In this document: in pieces, positions 1,827 to 33,938 of the stretch
Position numbering within the stretch: position 1 is the stretch's first letter
How the letters are laid out: the number at the start of each line of letters is the position of its first letter
Assembly (NCBI RefSeq): GCF_000026545.1
Contig: NC_011601.1
Length of the DNA stretch: 64,000 nucleotides
Source of the DNA: Escherichia coli O127:H6 str. E2348/69
GTDB lineage: Bacteria > Pseudomonadota > Gammaproteobacteria > Enterobacterales > Enterobacteriaceae
Strand: one strand, 5' to 3'
Notes under the pieces: model-generated
The model's input: the letters and a program-made list of their open reading frames with translations, nothing else
Told to the model about the DNA's origin: nothing
The model's database searches: none
Program-made: the position numbers and the translations under genes

Positions 1827-3575
1827 ATGCATAACGACAAAGATCTCTCTACGTGGCAGACGTTCCGCCGACTGTGGCCAACCATTGCGCCTTTTAAAGC
1901 GGGTCTGATCGTGGCGGGCGTAGCGTTAATCCTCAACGCAGCCAGCGATACCTTCATGTTATCGCTCCTTAAGCCACTTCTTGATGATGGCTTTGGTAAA
2001 ACAGATCGCTCCGTGCTGATGTGGATGCCGCTGGTGGTGATCGGGCTGATGATTTTACGTGGTATCACCAGCTATATCTCCAGCTACTGTATCTCCTGGG
2101 TATCAGGAAAGGTGGTAATGACTATGCGTCGCCGCCTGTTTGGTCACATGATGGGAATGCCGGTTTCATTCTTTGACAAACAGTCAACGGGTACGCTGTT
2201 GTCACGTATCACCTACGATTCCGAACAGGTCGCTTCTTCTTCTTCCGGCGCACTGATTACTGTTGTGCGTGAAGGTGCGTCGATCATCGGCCTGTTCATC
2301 ATGATGTTCTATTACAGTTGGCAACTGTCGATCATTTTGATTGTGCTGGCACCGATTGTTTCGATTGCGATTCGCGTTGTATCGAAGCGTTTTCGCAACA
2401 TCAGTAAAAACATGCAGAACACCATGGGGCAGGTGACCACCAGCGCCGAACAAATGCTGAAAGGCCATAAAGAAGTATTGATTTTCGGTGGTCAGGAAGT
2501 GGAAACGAAACGCTTCGATAAAGTCAGTAACCGAATGCGTCTTCAGGGGATGAAAATGGTTTCAGCCTCTTCTATCTCTGATCCGATCATTCAGCTGATC
2601 GCCTCTTTGGCGCTGGCGTTTGTTCTGTATGCAGCAAGCTTCCCAAGTGTCATGGATAGCCTGACTGCCGGTACGATTACCGTTGTTTTCTCTTCAATGA
2701 TTGCACTTATGCGTCCGCTGAAATCGCTGACCAACGTTAACGCCCAGTTCCAGCGTGGTATGGCGGCTTGTCAGACGCTGTTTACCATTCTGGACAGTGA
2801 GCAGGAGAAAGACGAAGGTAAGCGCGTGATCGAGCGTGCAACTGGCGACGTGGAATTTCGCAATGTCACCTTTACTTATCCAGGACGTGACGTGCCCGCA
2901 TTGCGTAACATCAACCTGAAAATTCCGGCAGGGAAGACGGTTGCTCTGGTTGGACGATCTGGTTCAGGTAAATCAACCATCGCCAGCCTAATCACACGTT
3001 TTTACGATATTGATGAAGGCGAAATCCTGATGGATGGTCACGATCTGCGCGAGTATACCCTGGCGTCGTTACGTAACCAGGTTGCTCTGGTGTCGCAGAA
3101 TGTCCATCTGTTTAACGATACGGTTGCCAACAACATTGCTTACGCAAGGACTGAACAGTACAGCCGTGAGCAAATTGAAGAAGCTGCGCGTATGGCCTAC
3201 GCCATGGACTTCATCAATAAGATGGATAACGGTCTCGATACAGTCATTGGTGAAAACGGCGTGCTGCTCTCTGGCGGTCAGCGTCAGCGTATTGCTATCG
3301 CTCGAGCCTTGTTGCGTGATAGCCCGATACTGATTCTGGACGAAGCTACCTCGGCGTTGGATACCGAATCCGAACGTGCGATTCAGGCGGCACTGGATGA
3401 GTTGCAGAAAAACCGTACCTCTCTGGTGATTGCCCACCGCTTGTCTACCATTGAAAAGGCAGACGAAATCGTGGTTGTCGAGGATGGTGTCATTGTGGAA
3501 CGCGGTACGCATAACGATTTGCTTGAGCGCCGTGGCGTTTACGCGCAACTTCACAAAATGCAGTTTGGCCAATGA
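1827..3575 (+). CDS. msbA: Lipid A/LPS flippase, ABC transporter permease-ATPase MsbA (582 aa)
   Basis: 582-aa ORF; N-terminal transmembrane domain, Walker [13 protein letters not shown] signature LSGGQRQR, Walker [14 protein letters not shown] overlap with lpxK. Confidence 0.97.
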
Positions 3576-4558
3576 TCGAAAAAATCTGGTCTGGTGAATC
3601 CCCTTTATGGCGGCTATTGCTGCCACTCTCCTGGTTGTATGGCCTGGTGAGTGGCGCGATCCGTCTTTGCTATAAACTAAAACTGAAGCGCGCCTGGCGT
3701 GCCCCCGTACCGGTTGTCGTGGTTGGTAATCTCACCGCAGGCGGCAACGGAAAAACCCCGGTCGTTGTCTGGCTGGTGGAACAGCTGCAACAGCGCGGTA
3801 TTCGCGTGGGGGTTGTATCGCGGGGATATGGTGGTAAGGCTGAATCTTATCCGCTGTTATTGTCGGCAGATACCACCACAGCACAGGCGGGTGATGAACC
3901 TGTGTTGATTTATCAACGCACTGGCGCACCTGTTGCGGTTTCTCCCGTGCGTTCTGACGCGGTAAAAGCCATTCTGGCGCAACACCCTGATGTGCAGATC
4001 ATCGTAACCGACGATGGTTTACAGCATTATCGTCTGGCGCGTGATGTGGAAATTGTCGTTATTGATGGTGTGCGTCGCTTTGGCAATGGCTGGTGGTTGC
4101 CGGCGGGGTCAATGCGTGAGCGAGCGGGGCGCTTAAAGTCGGTTGATGCGGTAATCGTCAACGGCGGTGTCCCCCGCAGCGGTGAAATCCCCATGCATCT
4201 GCTGCCGGGTCAGGCGGTGAATTTACGTACCGGTACGCGTTGTGACGTTGCTCAGCTTGAACATGTGGTGGCGATTGCGGGGATTGGGCATCCGCCGCGC
4301 TTTTTTGCCACGCTGAAGATGTGCGGCGTACAACCGGAAAAATGTGTACCGCTGGCCGATCATCAGTCTTTGAATCATGCGGATGTCAGCGCGTTGGTAA
4401 GCGCCGGACAAACGCTGGTAATGACTGAAAAAGATGCGGTGAAATGCCGGGCCTTTGCAGAAGAAAATTGGTGGTATTTGCCTGTAGACGCACAGCTTTC
4501 AGGTGATGAACCAGCGAAACTGCTTGCGCAACTAACCTCGCTGGCTTCTGGCCACTAG
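3572..4558 (+). CDS. lpxK: Tetraacyldisaccharide 4'-kinase LpxK (328 aa)
   Basis: 328-aa ORF with P-loop [12 protein letters not shown]; start overlaps msbA stop (translational coupling); conserved msbA-lpxK arrangement. Confidence 0.95.
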
Positions 4559-4594
4559 TTACGCCGCGGCAGCGTTCGATTGATGGAGTCATGA

Positions 4595-5827
4595 ATGTCG
4601 CTGCCGCACCTCTCCCTTGCTGATGCGCGTAATCTTCACCTTGCCGCGCAAGGCCTGTTAAACAAACCCCGCCGTCGAGCCTCGTTGGAGGATATTCCGG
4701 CAACGATCTCCCGCATGTCCTTGCTGCAAATCGATACCATCAATATTGTTGCCCGTAGTCCATATCTGGTGCTTTTCAGTCGTCTGGGAAATTATCCTGC
4801 CCAGTGGCTGGATGAGTCTCTGGCGCGTGGCGAATTAATGGAATACTGGGCGCATGAAGCCTGCTTTATGCCGCGTAGCGATTTTCGTCTTATTCGCCAC
4901 CGCATGCTGGCACCTGAAAAAATGGGCTGGAAATATAAAGACGCCTGGATGCAGGAACATGCGGCGGAAATTGCACAGTTAATTCAGCATATTCATGATA
5001 AGGGGCCAGTACGTTCAGCCGATTTTGAGCATCCTCGTAAAGGGGCGAGCGGCTGGTGGGAGTGGAAGCCGCATAAACGACATCTGGAAGGTTTATTTAC
5101 TGCCGGAAAGGTGATGGTGATTGAACGGCGCAACTTCCAGCGCGTTTATGATTTAACTCACCGTGTCATGCCTGAGTGGAATGATGAGCGCGATCTCGTT
5201 TCGCAAGCAGAAGCAGAAATCATCATGCTGGATAACAGTGCGCGTAGCCTGGGAATATTTCGCGAACAGTGGCTGGCAGATTACTACCGGCTAAAACGTC
5301 CGGCACTGGCGGCGTGGCGTGAAGCGAGGGCTGAACAGCAGCAAATCATTGCTGTGCATGTTGAAAAATTGGGCAATCTTTGGCTGCATGCTGATTTGCT
5401 GCCGCTACTCGAGCGTGCGCTCGCCGGAAAGCTCACTGCAACGCACAGCGCGGTACTTTCGCCTTTTGATCCTGTTGTCTGGGATCGCAAACGCGCGGAG
5501 CAGCTTTTTGATTTTAGCTACCGGCTGGAGTGCTATATCCCAGCGCCGAAACGCCAGTATGGCTATTTTGTTCTGCCGTTATTACATCGTGGGCAATTAG
5601 TTGGGCGAATGGATGCCAAAATGCATCGCCAGACAGGCATCCTGGAAGTTATCTCTCTGTGGTTACAGGAAGGCATTAAGCCAACGACAACGCTGCAAAA
5701 AGGGTTACGTCAGGCGATTACTGATTTCGCTAACTGGCAGCAGGCAACGCGGGTGACATTACGACGCTGCCCGCAAGGCCTCTTTACTGATTGCCGCGCC
5801 GGCTGGGAAATAGACCCCGTCGCATAA
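4595..5827 (+). CDS. ycaQ: Winged-helix DNA glycosylase YcaQ (410 aa)
   Basis: 410-aa ORF matching recalled YcaQ length and position between lpxK and ycaR. Confidence 0.88.
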   Translation: MSLPHLSLADARNLHLAAQGLLNKPRRRASLEDIPATISRMSLLQIDTINIVARSPYLVLFSRLGNYPAQWLDESLARGELMEYWAHEACFMPRSDFRLIRHRMLAPEKMGWKYKDAWMQEHAAEIAQLIQHIHDKGPVRSADFEHPRKGASGWWEWKPHKRHLEGLFTAGKVMVIERRNFQRVYDLTHRVMPEWNDERDLVSQAEAEIIMLDNSARSLGIFREQWLADYYRLKRPALAAWREARAEQQQIIAVHVEKLGNLWLHADLLPLLERALAGKLTATHSAVLSPFDPVVWDRKRAEQLFDFSYRLECYIPAPKRQYGYFVLPLLHRGQLVGRMDAKMHRQTGILEVISLWLQEGIKPTTTLQKGLRQAITDFANWQQATRVTLRRCPQGLFTDCRAGWEIDPVA

Positions 5828-25636: not shown

Positions 25637-28249
25637 ATGACTCAACAGCCACAAGCCAAATACCGTCACGATTATCGTGCGCCGGATTACCAGATTACTG
25701 ATATTGACTTGACCTTTGACCTGGACGCGCAAAAGACGGTCGTTACCGCGGTCAGCCAGGCTGTCCGTCATGGTGCATCAGATGTTCCGCTTCGTCTCAA
25801 CGGCGAAGACCTCAAACTGGTTTCTGTTTATATTAATGATGAGCCGTGGACCGCCTGGAAAGAAGAAGAGGGCGCACTGGTCATCAGTAATTTGCCGGAG
25901 CGTTTTACGCTTAAGATCGTTAATGAAATTAGCCCGGCGGCGAATACTGCGCTGGAAGGGCTTTATCAGTCAGGCGATGCGCTTTGCACCCAGTGTGAAG
26001 CCGAAGGTTTCCGCCATATTACGTATTATCTCGACCGCCCGGATGTGCTGGCGCGTTTTACCACCAAAATTATTGCCGATAAAACCAAATATCCCTTCCT
26101 GCTTTCCAATGGTAACCGCGTTGCGCAAGGTGAACTGGAAAATGGACGTCATTGGGTACAGTGGCAGGACCCGTTCCCGAAACCGTGTTACCTGTTTGCG
26201 TTGGTGGCAGGCGACTTTGATGTGCTGCGCGACACTTTCACCACACGTTCTGGTCGCGAAGTAGCGCTGGAGCTGTACGTCGATCGTGGCAACCTTGATC
26301 GCGCGCCGTGGGCGATGACCTCGCTGAAAAACTCCATGAAATGGGATGAAGAACGCTTCGGCCTGGAGTATGACCTCGACATCTATATGATCGTCGCGGT
26401 GGATTTCTTCAATATGGGCGCAATGGAGAATAAGGGGCTGAATATCTTTAACTCCAAATATGTGCTGGCACGCACCGACACCGCCACCGACAAAGATTAC
26501 CTCGATATTGAACGCGTTATCGGCCATGAATATTTCCATAACTGGACCGGCAACCGTGTCACCTGTCGCGACTGGTTCCAGCTCAGTCTGAAAGAAGGTT
26601 TAACCGTCTTCCGCGATCAGGAATTCAGCTCTGACCTTGGTTCCCGCGCGGTAAACCGTATCAACAACGTGCGCACCATGCGCGGATTGCAGTTTGCGGA
26701 AGACGCCAGCCCGATGGCGCACCCGATCCGCCCGGATATGGTCATTGAGATGAACAACTTCTACACCCTGACCGTTTACGAGAAGGGCGCGGAAGTGATT
26801 CGCATGATCCACACCCTGCTGGGCGAAGAAAACTTCCAGAAAGGGATGCAGCTCTATTTCGAGCGCCATGATGGCAGCGCGGCAACCTGCGACGACTTTG
26901 TTCAGGCGATGGAAGATGCGTCGAATGTCGATCTTTCCCATTTCCGCCGTTGGTACAGCCAGTCCGGCACGCCGGTTGTGACCGTCAAAGACGACTACAA
27001 TCCGGAAACTGAGCAGTACACCCTGACCATCAGCCAGCGCACGCCAGCTACGCCGGATCAGGCAGAAAAACAACCGCTGCATATTCCGTTTGCCATCGAA
27101 CTGTATGACAACGAAGGCAAAGTGATCCCGTTGCAGAAAGGCGGTCATCCGGTGAATTCCGTGCTGAACGTCACCCAGGCGGAACAGACCTTTGTTTTTG
27201 ATAATGTCTACTTCCAGCCGGTGCCTGCGCTGCTGTGCGAATTCTCTGCGCCAGTGAAACTGGAATATAAGTGGAGCGATCAGCAACTGACCTTCCTGAT
27301 GCGTCATGCGCGTAATGATTTCTCTCGCTGGGACGCGGCGCAAAGTTTGCTGGCAACCTACATCAAGCTGAACGTCGCCCGTCATCAGCAAGGGCAGCCG
27401 TTGTCTCTGCCGGTGCATGTGGCTGACGCTTTCCGCGCGGTGCTGCTCGATGAGAAGATTGATCCGGCGCTGGCGGCAGAAATCCTGACGCTGCCTTCCG
27501 TCAATGAAATGGCAGAACTGTTCGATATCATCGACCCGATTGCTATTGCCGAAGTACGCGAAGCACTCACTCGTACTCTGGCGACTGAACTGGCAGATGA
27601 GCTGCTGGCTATTTACAACGCGAATTACCAGAGCGAGTACCGTGTTGAGCATGAAGATATTGCAAAACGCACTCTGCGTAATGCCTGCCTGCGTTTCCTC
27701 GCTTTTGGTGAAACGCATCTGGCTGACGTGCTGGTGAGCAAACAGTTCCACGAAGCGAACAATATGACCGATGCGCTGGCGGCGCTTTCTGCGGCGGTTG
27801 CTGCACAGCTGCCTTGCCGTGACGCGCTGATGCAGGAGTACGACGACAAGTGGCATCAGGATGGTCTGGTGATGGATAAATGGTTTATCCTGCAAGCCAC
27901 CAGCCCGGCGGCGAATGTGCTGGAGACGGTGCGTGGCCTGTTGCAGCATCGCTCATTTACCATGAGCAACCCGAACCGTATTCGTTCGTTGATTGGTGCG
28001 TTTGCGGGCAGCAACCCGGCAGCGTTCCATGCCGAAGATGGCAGCGGTTACCAGTTCCTGGTGGAAATGCTTACCGACCTCAACAGCCGTAACCCGCAGG
28101 TGGCTTCACGCCTGATTGAGCCGCTGATTCGCCTGAAACGTTACGATGCCAAACGTCAGGAGAAAATGCGCGCGGCGCTGGAGCAGTTGAAAGGGCTGGA
28201 AAATCTCTCTGGCGATCTGTACGAGAAGATAACTAAAGCACTGGCTTGA
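25637..28249 (+). CDS. pepN: Aminopeptidase N PepN (870 aa)
   Basis: 870-aa ORF; M1-family zinc motif HEYFHNWTGNRVT...E and GAMEN motif visible. Confidence 0.97.
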   Translation: MTQQPQAKYRHDYRAPDYQITDIDLTFDLDAQKTVVTAVSQAVRHGASDVPLRLNGEDLKLVSVYINDEPWTAWKEEEGALVISNLPERFTLKIVNEISPAANTALEGLYQSGDALCTQCEAEGFRHITYYLDRPDVLARFTTKIIADKTKYPFLLSNGNRVAQGELENGRHWVQWQDPFPKPCYLFALVAGDFDVLRDTFTTRSGREVALELYVDRGNLDRAPWAMTSLKNSMKWDEERFGLEYDLDIYMIVAVDFFNMGAMENKGLNIFNSKYVLARTDTATDKDYLDIERVIGHEYFHNWTGNRVTCRDWFQLSLKEGLTVFRDQEFSSDLGSRAVNRINNVRTMRGLQFAEDASPMAHPIRPDMVIEMNNFYTLTVYEKGAEVIRMIHTLLGEENFQKGMQLYFERHDGSAATCDDFVQAMEDASNVDLSHFRRWYSQSGTPVVTVKDDYNPETEQYTLTISQRTPATPDQAEKQPLHIPFAIELYDNEGKVIPLQKGGHPVNSVLNVTQAEQTFVFDNVYFQPVPALLCEFSAPVKLEYKWSDQQLTFLMRHARNDFSRWDAAQSLLATYIKLNVARHQQGQPLSLPVHVADAFRAVLLDEKIDPALAAEILTLPSVNEMAELFDIIDPIAIAEVREALTRTLATELADELLAIYNANYQSEYRVEHEDIAKRTLRNACLRFLAFGETHLADVLVSKQFHEANNMTDALAALSAAVAAQLPCRDALMQEYDDKWHQDGLVMDKWFILQATSPAANVLETVRGLLQHRSFTMSNPNRIRSLIGAFAGSNPAAFHAEDGSGYQFLVEMLTDLNSRNPQVASRLIEPLIRLKRYDAKRQEKMRAALEQLKGLENLSGDLYEKITKALA

Positions 28250-28261
28250 TACTTTTGAGCC

Positions 28262-28453
28262 AAAATGCCGGATGCGACGCTTGACGCGTCTTATCAGGCC
28301 TACAAGTCCGTTGAAAATGCTGGTTTTGTAGGCTGGATAAGGCGTTCACGCCGCATCCGGCAGCCGTGCCCAAATGCCTGATGCGACGCTTGACGCGTCT
28401 TATCAGGCCTACAATCCGTTGAAACTGCTGGTTTTGTGTGCCACATCCGGCAT
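28262..28453. repeat. REP/BIME-type repetitive extragenic palindromic cluster (two tandem copies of a composite unit)
   Basis: Near-identical blocks gatgcgacgcttgacgcgtcttatcaggcctacaa at 28270-28305 and 28379-28414, each followed by ccgttgaaa(a/-)tgctggttttgt; internal inverted REP ggctggataaggcgttcacgccgcatccggcag. Confidence 0.75.
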
Positions 28454-28454
28454 A

Positions 28455-29222
28455 TTAACCATGACGCCGAATCGGTTGTTCAGAGTGCCCACGCTGCATC
28501 ACCCGTTGCAAAACTTCCGCTTCCAGCTCCGCTAATCGCACCGACCCTAACCGGCGCGGACGGGGGATATCCACCGTCAAATCCAGACCAATTTTTCCCT
28601 CTTCAATTAACAATACCCGGTCAGCCATTGCTACCGCTTCGCTCACATCATGCGTCACCAACAGTACGGTAAAGCCGTGCTCCTGCCAAAGTGACACAAT
28701 CAAATCCTGCATCTCGAGCCGAGTCAGGGCGTCCAGCGCCCCGAGCGGTTCATCAAGCAATAATAAACCCGGTCGATGAATTAACGCTCTTGCCAGCGCC
28801 ACACGCTGTTTCTGCCCGCCAGAAAGTGCGGCAGGCCATTCCCCCGCGCGATTCTCCAGTCCTACCGCAGCCAGCGCCCGACGCGCGGCATCGCGCCACT
28901 GACCTTGAAGGCCTAACCCAACGTTATCAATCACCGATTTCCACGGTAGCAGACGCGCATCCTGAAACATCATTCGCGTGTCTTCCTGAATCTCAGCCAG
29001 CGGTGTGGTGCCGGCTAACACATCGCCTGCGGTTGGCGTTTCCAGACCTGCCAGCAGGCGCAGCAGGGTACTTTTGCCACCACCGCTGCGGCCCACCACC
29101 GCCACAAACTGACCAGCCGGAATATGTAAATCCAGTTGGTTCAGAACGATATTTTCCGCGTAATGCTTGCTTACTGCATTGAGCAACAATGGCGTGCCCT
29201 GGTTCAGACGAGCAGTATTCAT
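28455..29222 (-). CDS. ssuB: Aliphatic sulfonate ABC transporter ATP-binding protein SsuB (255 aa)
   Basis: 255-aa ORF; Walker [10 protein letters not shown], signature [15 protein letters not shown]. Confidence 0.95.
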
Positions 29223-32691: not shown

Positions 32692-32927
32692 ACTCTCTCC
32701 TTATAACCAATTGTTCTTTTTTTGTTAACATTGATAACAATTCGGTCAGTCTGACAGAGGGCGTCCGCGAGTCGAAATGATTTATCTGAGGAAGAAAAGC
32801 CAAAAAAAGCATAAAAAAAGCGCAATAAGAAAACGTTTGCTATTTATTGCCGCAGGTCAATTCCCTTTTGGTCCGAACTCGCACATAATACGCCCCCGGT
32901 TTGCACACCGGGAATCCAGGAGAGTTC

Positions 32928-33938
32928 ATGTACTACCCCTTCGTTCGTAAAGCCCTTTTCCAGCTCGATCCAGAGCGCGCTCATGAGTTTACTTTTCAGC
33001 AATTACGCCGTATTACCGGAACGCCGTTTGAAGCACTGGTGCGGCAGAAAGTGCCTGCGAAACCTGTTAACTGCATGGGCCTGACGTTTAAAAATCCGCT
33101 TGGTCTGGCAGCCGGTCTTGATAAAGACGGGGAGTGCATTGACGCGTTAGGCGCGATGGGATTTGGATCGATCGAGATCGGTACCGTCACGCCACGTCCC
33201 CAGCCAGGTAATGACAAGCCGCGTCTCTTTCGTCTGGTAGATGCCGAAGGTTTGATCAACCGTATGGGCTTTAATAATCTTGGCGTTGATAACCTCGTAG
33301 AGAACGTAAAAAAAGCCCATTACGACGGCGTTCTGGGTATTAACATCGGCAAAAATAAAGATACGCCGGTGGAGCAGGGTAAAGATGACTATCTGATTTG
33401 TATGGAAAAAATCTATGCCTATGCGGGATATATCGCCATCAATATTTCATCGCCAAATACCCCAGGATTACGCACACTGCAATATGGTGAAGCGCTGGAT
33501 GATCTCTTAACTGCGATTAAAAATAAACAAAATGATTTGCAAGTGATGCACCATAAATATGTGCCGATCGCAGTGAAGATCGCGCCGGATCTTTCTGAAG
33601 AAGAATTGATCCAGGTTGCCGATAGTTTAGTTCGCCATAATATTGATGGCGTTATTGCAACCAATACCACACTCGATCGTTCTCTGGTTCAGGGAATGAA
33701 AAATTGCGATCAAACCGGTGGCTTAAGTGGTCGTCCGCTTCAGTTAAAAAGCACCGAAATTATTCGCCGCTTGTCACAGGAATTAAACGGACGCTTGCCG
33801 ATTATTGGTGTTGGCGGCATTGACTCGGTTATCGCTGCGCGTGAAAAGATTGCTGCGGGTGCCTCACTGGTGCAAATTTATTCTGGTTTTATTTTTAAAG
33901 GTCCGCCGCTGATTAAAGAAATCGTTACCCATATCTAA
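32928..33938 (+). CDS. pyrD: Dihydroorotate dehydrogenase (quinone) PyrD (336 aa)
   Basis: ORF-track entry starts at 32901; ATG at 32928 gives [22 protein letters not shown]-terminus and 336 aa. Confidence 0.95.

Follow-up and report, generated by a model that had tools for sequence, protein, structure and literature searches.

A tandem REP array, probably of the BIME-2 type, between the convergent pepN and ssuB genes of Escherichia coli

The window analyzed here is a 64-kb stretch of the genome of Escherichia coli O127:H6 strain E2348/69, taken as a whole, in which the convergent genes pepN and ssuB are separated by a spacer of 205 nt (28250-28454) that lies between two converging stop codons. 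The gene pepN (25637-28249, + strand), encoding aminopeptidase N, was identified by its open reading frame and a match to TIGR02414 (1254.6 bits versus a cut-off of 718), and ssuB (28455-29222, - strand), encoding the ATPase of the aliphatic sulfonate ABC transporter, by a match to NF008420 (497 bits). The latter is the last gene of the convergent ssu operon, with ssuC and ssuD coming after it on the - strand. The stop codon of pepN occupies positions 28247-28249, 17 nt upstream of the first of several REPs, and the stop codon of ssuB occupies positions 28455-28457 on the - strand. The 3' untranslated region of pepN enters the REP array, which is located in the 3' untranslated region common to the convergent transcription units pepN and ssuEADCB. 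E. coli strain 104 (NZ_CP029164) shows 100% identity over the 601 bases around the array, and the neighboring genes are annotated in this strain as pepN and ssuB. In the RefSeq records inspected, the annotations at this spacer consist of the two coding sequences only, with no repeat feature. No further REPs of the Z2/Y kind are present elsewhere in the 64-kb window. Rfam matches above the gathering score were obtained elsewhere in the window for a PyrD leader (32860-32933, + strand, 97.9 bits) and a tRNA (59643-59727, - strand, 57.5 bits).

The spacer contains an exact 35-mer, GATGCGACGCTTGACGCGTCTTATCAGGCCTACAA, that occurs twice in the 64-kb window (28271-28305 and 28380-28414), where the chance expectation is 0.00 copies even with 3 mismatches. 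An earlier note on this DNA, made from the letters alone, had described two direct copies of a core; their number is indeed exactly two, but the starts that had been assigned to them, 28270 and 28379, are each 1 nt early, and the base at these two positions differs between the copies (G versus T). The G at 28270, in the first Z2 of the E2348/69 window, is T in most alleles; with G, the stem foot has one mismatch more. The direct repeat is also longer than had been noted: positions 28259-28305 are repeated at 28368-28414 (47 nt, 96%) and, after a 1-nt indel, positions 28307-28329 are repeated at 28415-28437 (23 nt, 96%), which gives an overall correspondence of 28259-28329 with 28368-28437 and a period of 108-109 nt.

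The first unit of the array (28259-28367, + strand, 109 nt), delimited by the direct repeats and a pairwise alignment of the two units, comprises a flank or S-like motif, a Z2, a linker and a Y. The Z2-type REP of this unit, GCCGGATGCGACGCTTGACGCGTCTTATCAGGCCTAC (28267-28303, + strand, 37 nt), which reads ...GGCCTAC, is followed by a 24-nt tail-to-tail linker, AAGTCCGTTGAAAATGCTGGTTTT (28304-28327, + strand), and by an inverted Y-type REP of 35 nt (28328-28362, - strand), for which the + strand reads GTAGGCTGGATAAGGCGTTCACGCCGCATCCGGCA. The latter is the inverted REP-like element that had been placed between the two copies, and it is complementary to both of the copies that flank it. A 13-nt, S-like head-to-head linker, GCCGTGCCCAAAT (28363-28375, + strand), which can be aligned with the linker in Rfam's naRNA4 model, connects it to the second Z2-type REP (28376-28412, + strand, 37 nt). 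This copy is followed by a second tail-to-tail linker of 23 nt (28413-28435, + strand) and by a remnant of a Y REP, GTGTGCCACATCCGGCA (28436-28452, - strand), recognized by alignment, from which about 20 nt have been deleted internally. Between the end of the remnant, the fourth REP of the array, and the ssuB stop codon there are only 2 nt, TA (28453-28454), in line with the claim of the earlier note that the array fills the convergent spacer and reaches this codon.

The REPs of E. coli are imperfect palindromes of 30-40 nt, classified as y (35 nt), z2 (37 nt) and z1 (29 nt) (PMC8266576), with a conserved GTAG/CTAC tetranucleotide at the foot and a two-base mismatch in the stem as hallmarks (PMC3333891; the mismatch also PMC8266576). 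The complete palindromes of the array, two of 37 nt (28267-28303 and 28376-28412) and one of 35 nt (28328-28362), have the lengths of z2 and y, not of z1. Their feet are CTAC at 28300-28303 and 28409-28412 and GTAG at 28328-28331, the deleted fourth copy retaining GT only, and GC is found opposite TT in the stems of all 3 complete copies (...GATGCG... versus ...CTTATC...). The position within the 205-nt spacer between two stop codons is extragenic, and the sequence is dispersed in high copy, with parts of the 601-nt query recurring at a median of at least 32 places per E. coli genome.

Elements of the BIME-2 type are defined by y and z2 REPs alternating in orientation, a short head-to-head linker and tandem repetition (PMC3333891). 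The REPs of the spacer follow the order Z2(+), Y(-), Z2(+), Y remnant(-), with the head-to-head linker of 13 nt, and the tandem units vary in number among strains (1, 2 or 3). The Rfam model RF02564 (naRNA4, a Y-S-Z2 BIME-2 unit) matches positions 28331-28409 on the + strand with 82.2 bits (gathering score 59.5, E = 6e-15), and the covariance model also scores 52 bits on the - strand. The 24-nt tail-to-tail linker is locus-specific and not a dispersed motif: at about 90% identity or more, a 34-nt probe detects it at the pepN–ssuB locus only, in 2,249 BIME-allele genomes with 1 to 4 copies each (median 2). This fits the published statement that the linkers of BIME-2 elements vary in length and sequence between loci and are uniform within a locus (PMC3333891). 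Overall, the spacer is best explained, with a probability of about 0.9, as a BIME-2-type REP cluster that consists of two tandem 109-nt units, each with a Z2 and an opposed Y, the last Y being internally deleted. The assignment to the REP/BIME family made in the earlier note is thereby upheld, the palindromes being E. coli REP/PU types z2 and y in a tandem BIME-2-type array; that the 37- and 35-nt palindromes might not align, genome-wide, with the catalogued z2 and y REPs is already excluded. The element is a typical member of this long-described class, with class-typical behavior, and its kind is already known. Motifs of type s, l or r are expected at tail-to-tail or flanking positions of BIME-2 elements; the 24-nt linker may resemble the right-hand portion of the L motif and is at best a tentative candidate for an 'r' motif.

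Allele counts were obtained from 5,426 complete E. coli genomes. The array, in any form, is present in 2,233 of these at E <= 1e-120 (uninterrupted in 2,046) and in 2,249 as judged by the linker probe, and two units are the dominant state among the array-bearing genomes. Variants in unit number were recovered by spread sampling at a strict E-value, synthetic one-unit and three-unit queries being uninformative because close two-unit genomes outrank diverged true variants, and the REPs in the spacers were counted by a Hamming scan. A three-unit allele with a spacer of 314 nt was found in strain N96 and a one-unit allele with a spacer of 96 nt in strain VE-T9; strain SCU-176 and others have a 12-nt deletion in the first Z2 arm, and strain PCP07014 has an extra degenerate Y. 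Each change in unit number corresponds to exactly one period of the repeat, gained or lost. In the one-unit allele, the left part of unit 1 is fused with the right part of unit 2, which is the expected product of a one-period loss by recombination or slippage between direct repeats. Copy number across E. coli, the invariance of which had been named beforehand as an argument against the REP interpretation, takes the values 0, 1, 2 and 3 and thus differs among strains.

In 3,166 of the 5,426 genomes (~58%), including K-12 MG1655 and O157:H7, pepN and ssuB are separated by a 42-nt spacer that is unrelated to the array and contains no REP. Like the array, this K-12-type spacer is placed where pepN and ssuB converge, and it too folds into a strong stem-loop, a hairpin with a single GC stem of 12 bp (-25.7 kcal/mol, centroid structure). 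It differs in being non-homologous, REP-free and tied to an ssuB end that has diverged over 12 codons. The block in which the BIME and K-12-type alleles differ runs ~40 nt into ssuB and takes in the last ~12 codons of the gene (28458-28493); these encode RGESETRLRKQG in the K-12 type and 12 different residues in the BIME allele. The absence of the BIME from ~58% of the genomes implies that the element is dispensable, and the presence of a strong hairpin in an unrelated spacer mildly supports a requirement for a stem-loop at this site. As K-12 is devoid of the element, it is missing from K-12-based REP catalogues.

The pepN–ssuB junction is dimorphic in E. coli (window 28250-28493; L001 501-580), the two alleles being non-homologous. 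In the BIME allele, a small hairpin of 8 bp, UGGCUUGA/UUGAGCCA, lies across the stop codon of pepN (window 28242-28262), its 3' arm being part of the variable segment; the cryptic-clade alleles (TGATACAAACATGCC) lack this hairpin, which is therefore probably incidental.

The age of the array was addressed by a pattern scan of outgroups with one genome per species, a small sample of 7 loci to which neither the type strain of E. coli nor E. fergusonii contributed. In E. albertii (L011), the pepN–ssuB spacer contains one decayed Z2/Y pair, the Y being full-length but decayed and adjoining the ssuB stop codon. Two units are present in the spacer of E. whittamii, and two and three units, respectively, in those of two cryptic-clade 'E. 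coli' genomes. All these genomes have the BIME-type ssuB end. Given that other Escherichia carry the BIME type, the array is probably ancestral in this genus, and the K-12-type spacer looks derived or imported, having replaced the BIME in ~58% of E. coli genomes. In E. albertii, the homology of ssuB seems to end ~150 nt into the gene (L011 8503-8920), which suggests a truncated ssu operon in this species. The pepN–ssuB spacer of Enterobacter hormaechei (L014 3716-3810) harbors a REP of another, species-type kind, GCCCGGTGGCGCTTCGCTTACCGGGCCTAC, with a GGGTGAGGGC-type repeat after it; a second REP family has thus settled independently in this spacer.

The remark that such elements can be IS targets also holds at this very locus, where, in other strains, an IS3-family element annotated as IS1397 has inserted into the first or the second Z2. 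At least three independent insertions, in both orientations, were found in the apical loop TTGAC of the Z2 REPs, which in the window corresponds to positions 28281-28285 (first Z2) and 28390-28394 (second Z2). In DETEC-S586 (L005 1069-2490), IS1397 is inserted in the first Z2 in + orientation, with the target duplication TGAC; in PCP07014 (L010 ~1482-2902), it is found in the first Z2 in the opposite orientation, with the duplication TGA; and in C4 (L009 ~3345-4790), it occupies the second Z2 in + orientation, with a duplication of about 3 bp. The DETEC-S586 junction is common to 142 genomes with 100% identity, and these look like a single inherited event. The junction probe from C4 also matches IS1397 copies that lie within Z2-like REPs of further loci, one of which is near mutT. 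This element has been described as specific for REPs (PMC1525189).

The folding proposed in the earlier note as a check yields very stable stem-loops on both strands, with minimum free energies of -104.5 kcal/mol for the + strand (z = -7.8 versus shuffled controls) and -104.1 kcal/mol for the - strand (z = -8.9). In the predicted folds of both strands, a single long hairpin is made up of the first Z2 together with the inverted Y, and a separate stem-loop of the second Z2. The 16 Z2 and 10 Y copies that were collected are nearly identical and show one-sided changes only; the REP copies are thus too uniform for covariation to separate RNA structure from DNA structure. A few substitutions were observed in Z2 stems (the second Z2 of strain A7, and E. 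whittamii), all of them C-to-T on the + strand (GACGC to GATGC and GCGTC to GTGTC). In these cases, which are too few for interpretation, G-U pairs would be kept in a + strand RNA and not in the - strand RNA or in DNA.

Among the alternative explanations, the possibility that the array acts mainly as a Rho-independent terminator, working in both directions on pepN and on the ssu operon, draws on the position between convergent genes, on the very stable hairpins of both strands and on the single GC hairpin in the same place in the alternative allele. However, the search for intrinsic terminators, defined as a GC-rich hairpin followed by a T-run, gave 0 on either strand versus 0.9 expected in shuffles, and REPs, by definition, differ from intrinsic terminators in having no U tail (PMC12306157), so this role appears unlikely. 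An effect on translation was considered as well. Ribosome stalling induced by REPs requires that the REP starts no more than 15 nt past the stop codon (Liang et al. 2015, as summarized in PMC12306157). The gaps between stop codon and complete REP are 17 nt for pepN (to the Z2 foot) and 42 nt for ssuB, where only the deleted Y remnant adjoins the stop codon; both exceed 15 nt, and the published stalling mechanism is probably not applicable.

It is likewise unlikely that the array encodes a nucleoid-associated non-coding RNA similar to naRNA4, which would bind HU and bridge cruciform DNA in the manner of the REP325 transcripts. The score of RF02564 is above the gathering threshold on the + strand (82.2 bits; 52 bits on the - strand), and, according to a published report, transcripts arise from ~80% of the REPs in E. 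coli, and the RNAs of REP325 act jointly with HU in condensing the nucleoid (PMC4550694). The Rfam model is, however, in effect one Y-S-Z2 BIME-2 unit of REP325, and any such unit will score. Furthermore, no sigma-70-like promoter was detected on either strand in or near the spacer (27900-28800 scanned), which implies that any transcript of the array is the tail of the pepN or ssu mRNA, and ~58% of E. coli genomes are without the element.

Similarly slim chances are given to the notion that the two non-homologous spacers, each tied to its own ssuB end, represent regulatory alleles of distinct function that selection has maintained or recombination has spread among E. coli lineages. If this were the case, the BIME allele would change the fate of the ssu and pepN mRNAs, local supercoiling or nucleoid contacts of the HU/naRNA type.

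Assignment to BIME-1 or RIP elements, which combine Y and Z1 with a long L linker and bind IHF, could be prompted by the inverted REP pairs and by the tail-to-tail linker, which at 24 nt is longer than the head-to-head linker, but is very improbable. The non-Y REPs are 37 nt long (z2) and not 29 nt (z1), the array is tandem, whereas BIME-1 elements are single copies (PMC3333891), and the IHF consensus WATCAANNNNTTR is absent from the array, its sole near match having one mismatch. With the z1 REP, the long L linker and the IHF consensus all absent from a tandem array, BIME-1/RIP was excluded. Finally, chance similarity (0.00 core copies expected), a private segmental duplication without any relation to REPs (a genome has tens of copies of the palindromes) and coding of a small protein can be dismissed almost outright, the last because the overlapping ORFs of 46-53 codons (28233-28373, 28300-28446 and 28374-28535) cross repeats with strain-variable number and indels, and the whole segment is missing from more than half of the genomes.

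For the BIME-2-type cluster, possible functions are suggested by the literature on the family. REP and BIME elements affect mRNA fate and bind gyrase, the affinity of BIME-2 being higher than that of BIME-1 (PMC12306157; PMC1475751; PMC3333891), and high-affinity gyrase binding and cleavage have been described for BIME-2 (PMC1475751). From this work, we infer two roles for the pepN–ssuB array, as an RNA barrier and as a gyrase site. At their 3' ends, the mRNAs of pepN and ssu would fold into the REP hairpins, which would block 3'-to-5' exonucleases and attenuate read-through. As DNA, the array may serve as a high-affinity gyrase site between the converging genes, and gyrase binding would be useful where two transcription units converge. 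Units may be gained and lost via slippage, via unequal recombination between direct repeats or via cleavage and joining by TnpA-REP (RAYT); the one-unit and three-unit alleles are accounted for by plain homologous recombination of the 109-nt repeats no less well than by TnpA-REP.

The locus is of little weight beyond annotation, where marking the array would help to avoid false calls of small ORFs or of a 'naRNA4 gene'. It is nevertheless a clean natural example of the gain and loss of units, of repeated targeting of the Z2 loop by IS1397 and of a BIME whose place has been taken by a hairpin spacer of unrelated sequence. Possible uses are as a marker in strain typing or as a test bed in which BIME and plain-hairpin 3' ends are compared on the same genes. 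Among the papers searched, none names three or more of pepN, ssuB, extragenic palindromes and IS1397.

Compared with known systems, the array shares with BIME-1/RIP elements the inverted REP pairs in intergenic DNA and differs from them by the lack of z1, the L linker and the IHF consensus, and by its tandem rather than single-copy organization. There is also similarity to the REPIN/RAYT (TnpA-REP) system. Binding and cleavage by TnpA-REP require the GTAG tetranucleotide and the stem mismatch (PMC3333891), and the array consists of inverted Z2 and Y doublets that have both, with CT dinucleotides in the linkers; no tnpA-REP gene, however, adjoins the array, and a part of this enzyme in the gain and loss of units is inference only. 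With respect to the target sites of IS1397, the palindromic units of BIMEs, no difference was noted: the apical loop of Z2 is hit with a duplication of 3-4 bp, in agreement with PMC1525189, and the locus provides a natural example, the E2348/69 window itself being free of the IS. In organization, the array resembles BIME-2 clusters such as REP325, the naRNA4 locus, which have the same two REP types with the same lengths, alternating orientation, a short head-to-head linker, tandem units in strain-variable number and an Rfam naRNA4 match above the gathering score. REP325 has six units (PMC4550694), as opposed to two at pepN–ssuB, the last one truncated, and the tail-to-tail linker of the pepN–ssuB array is specific to its locus.
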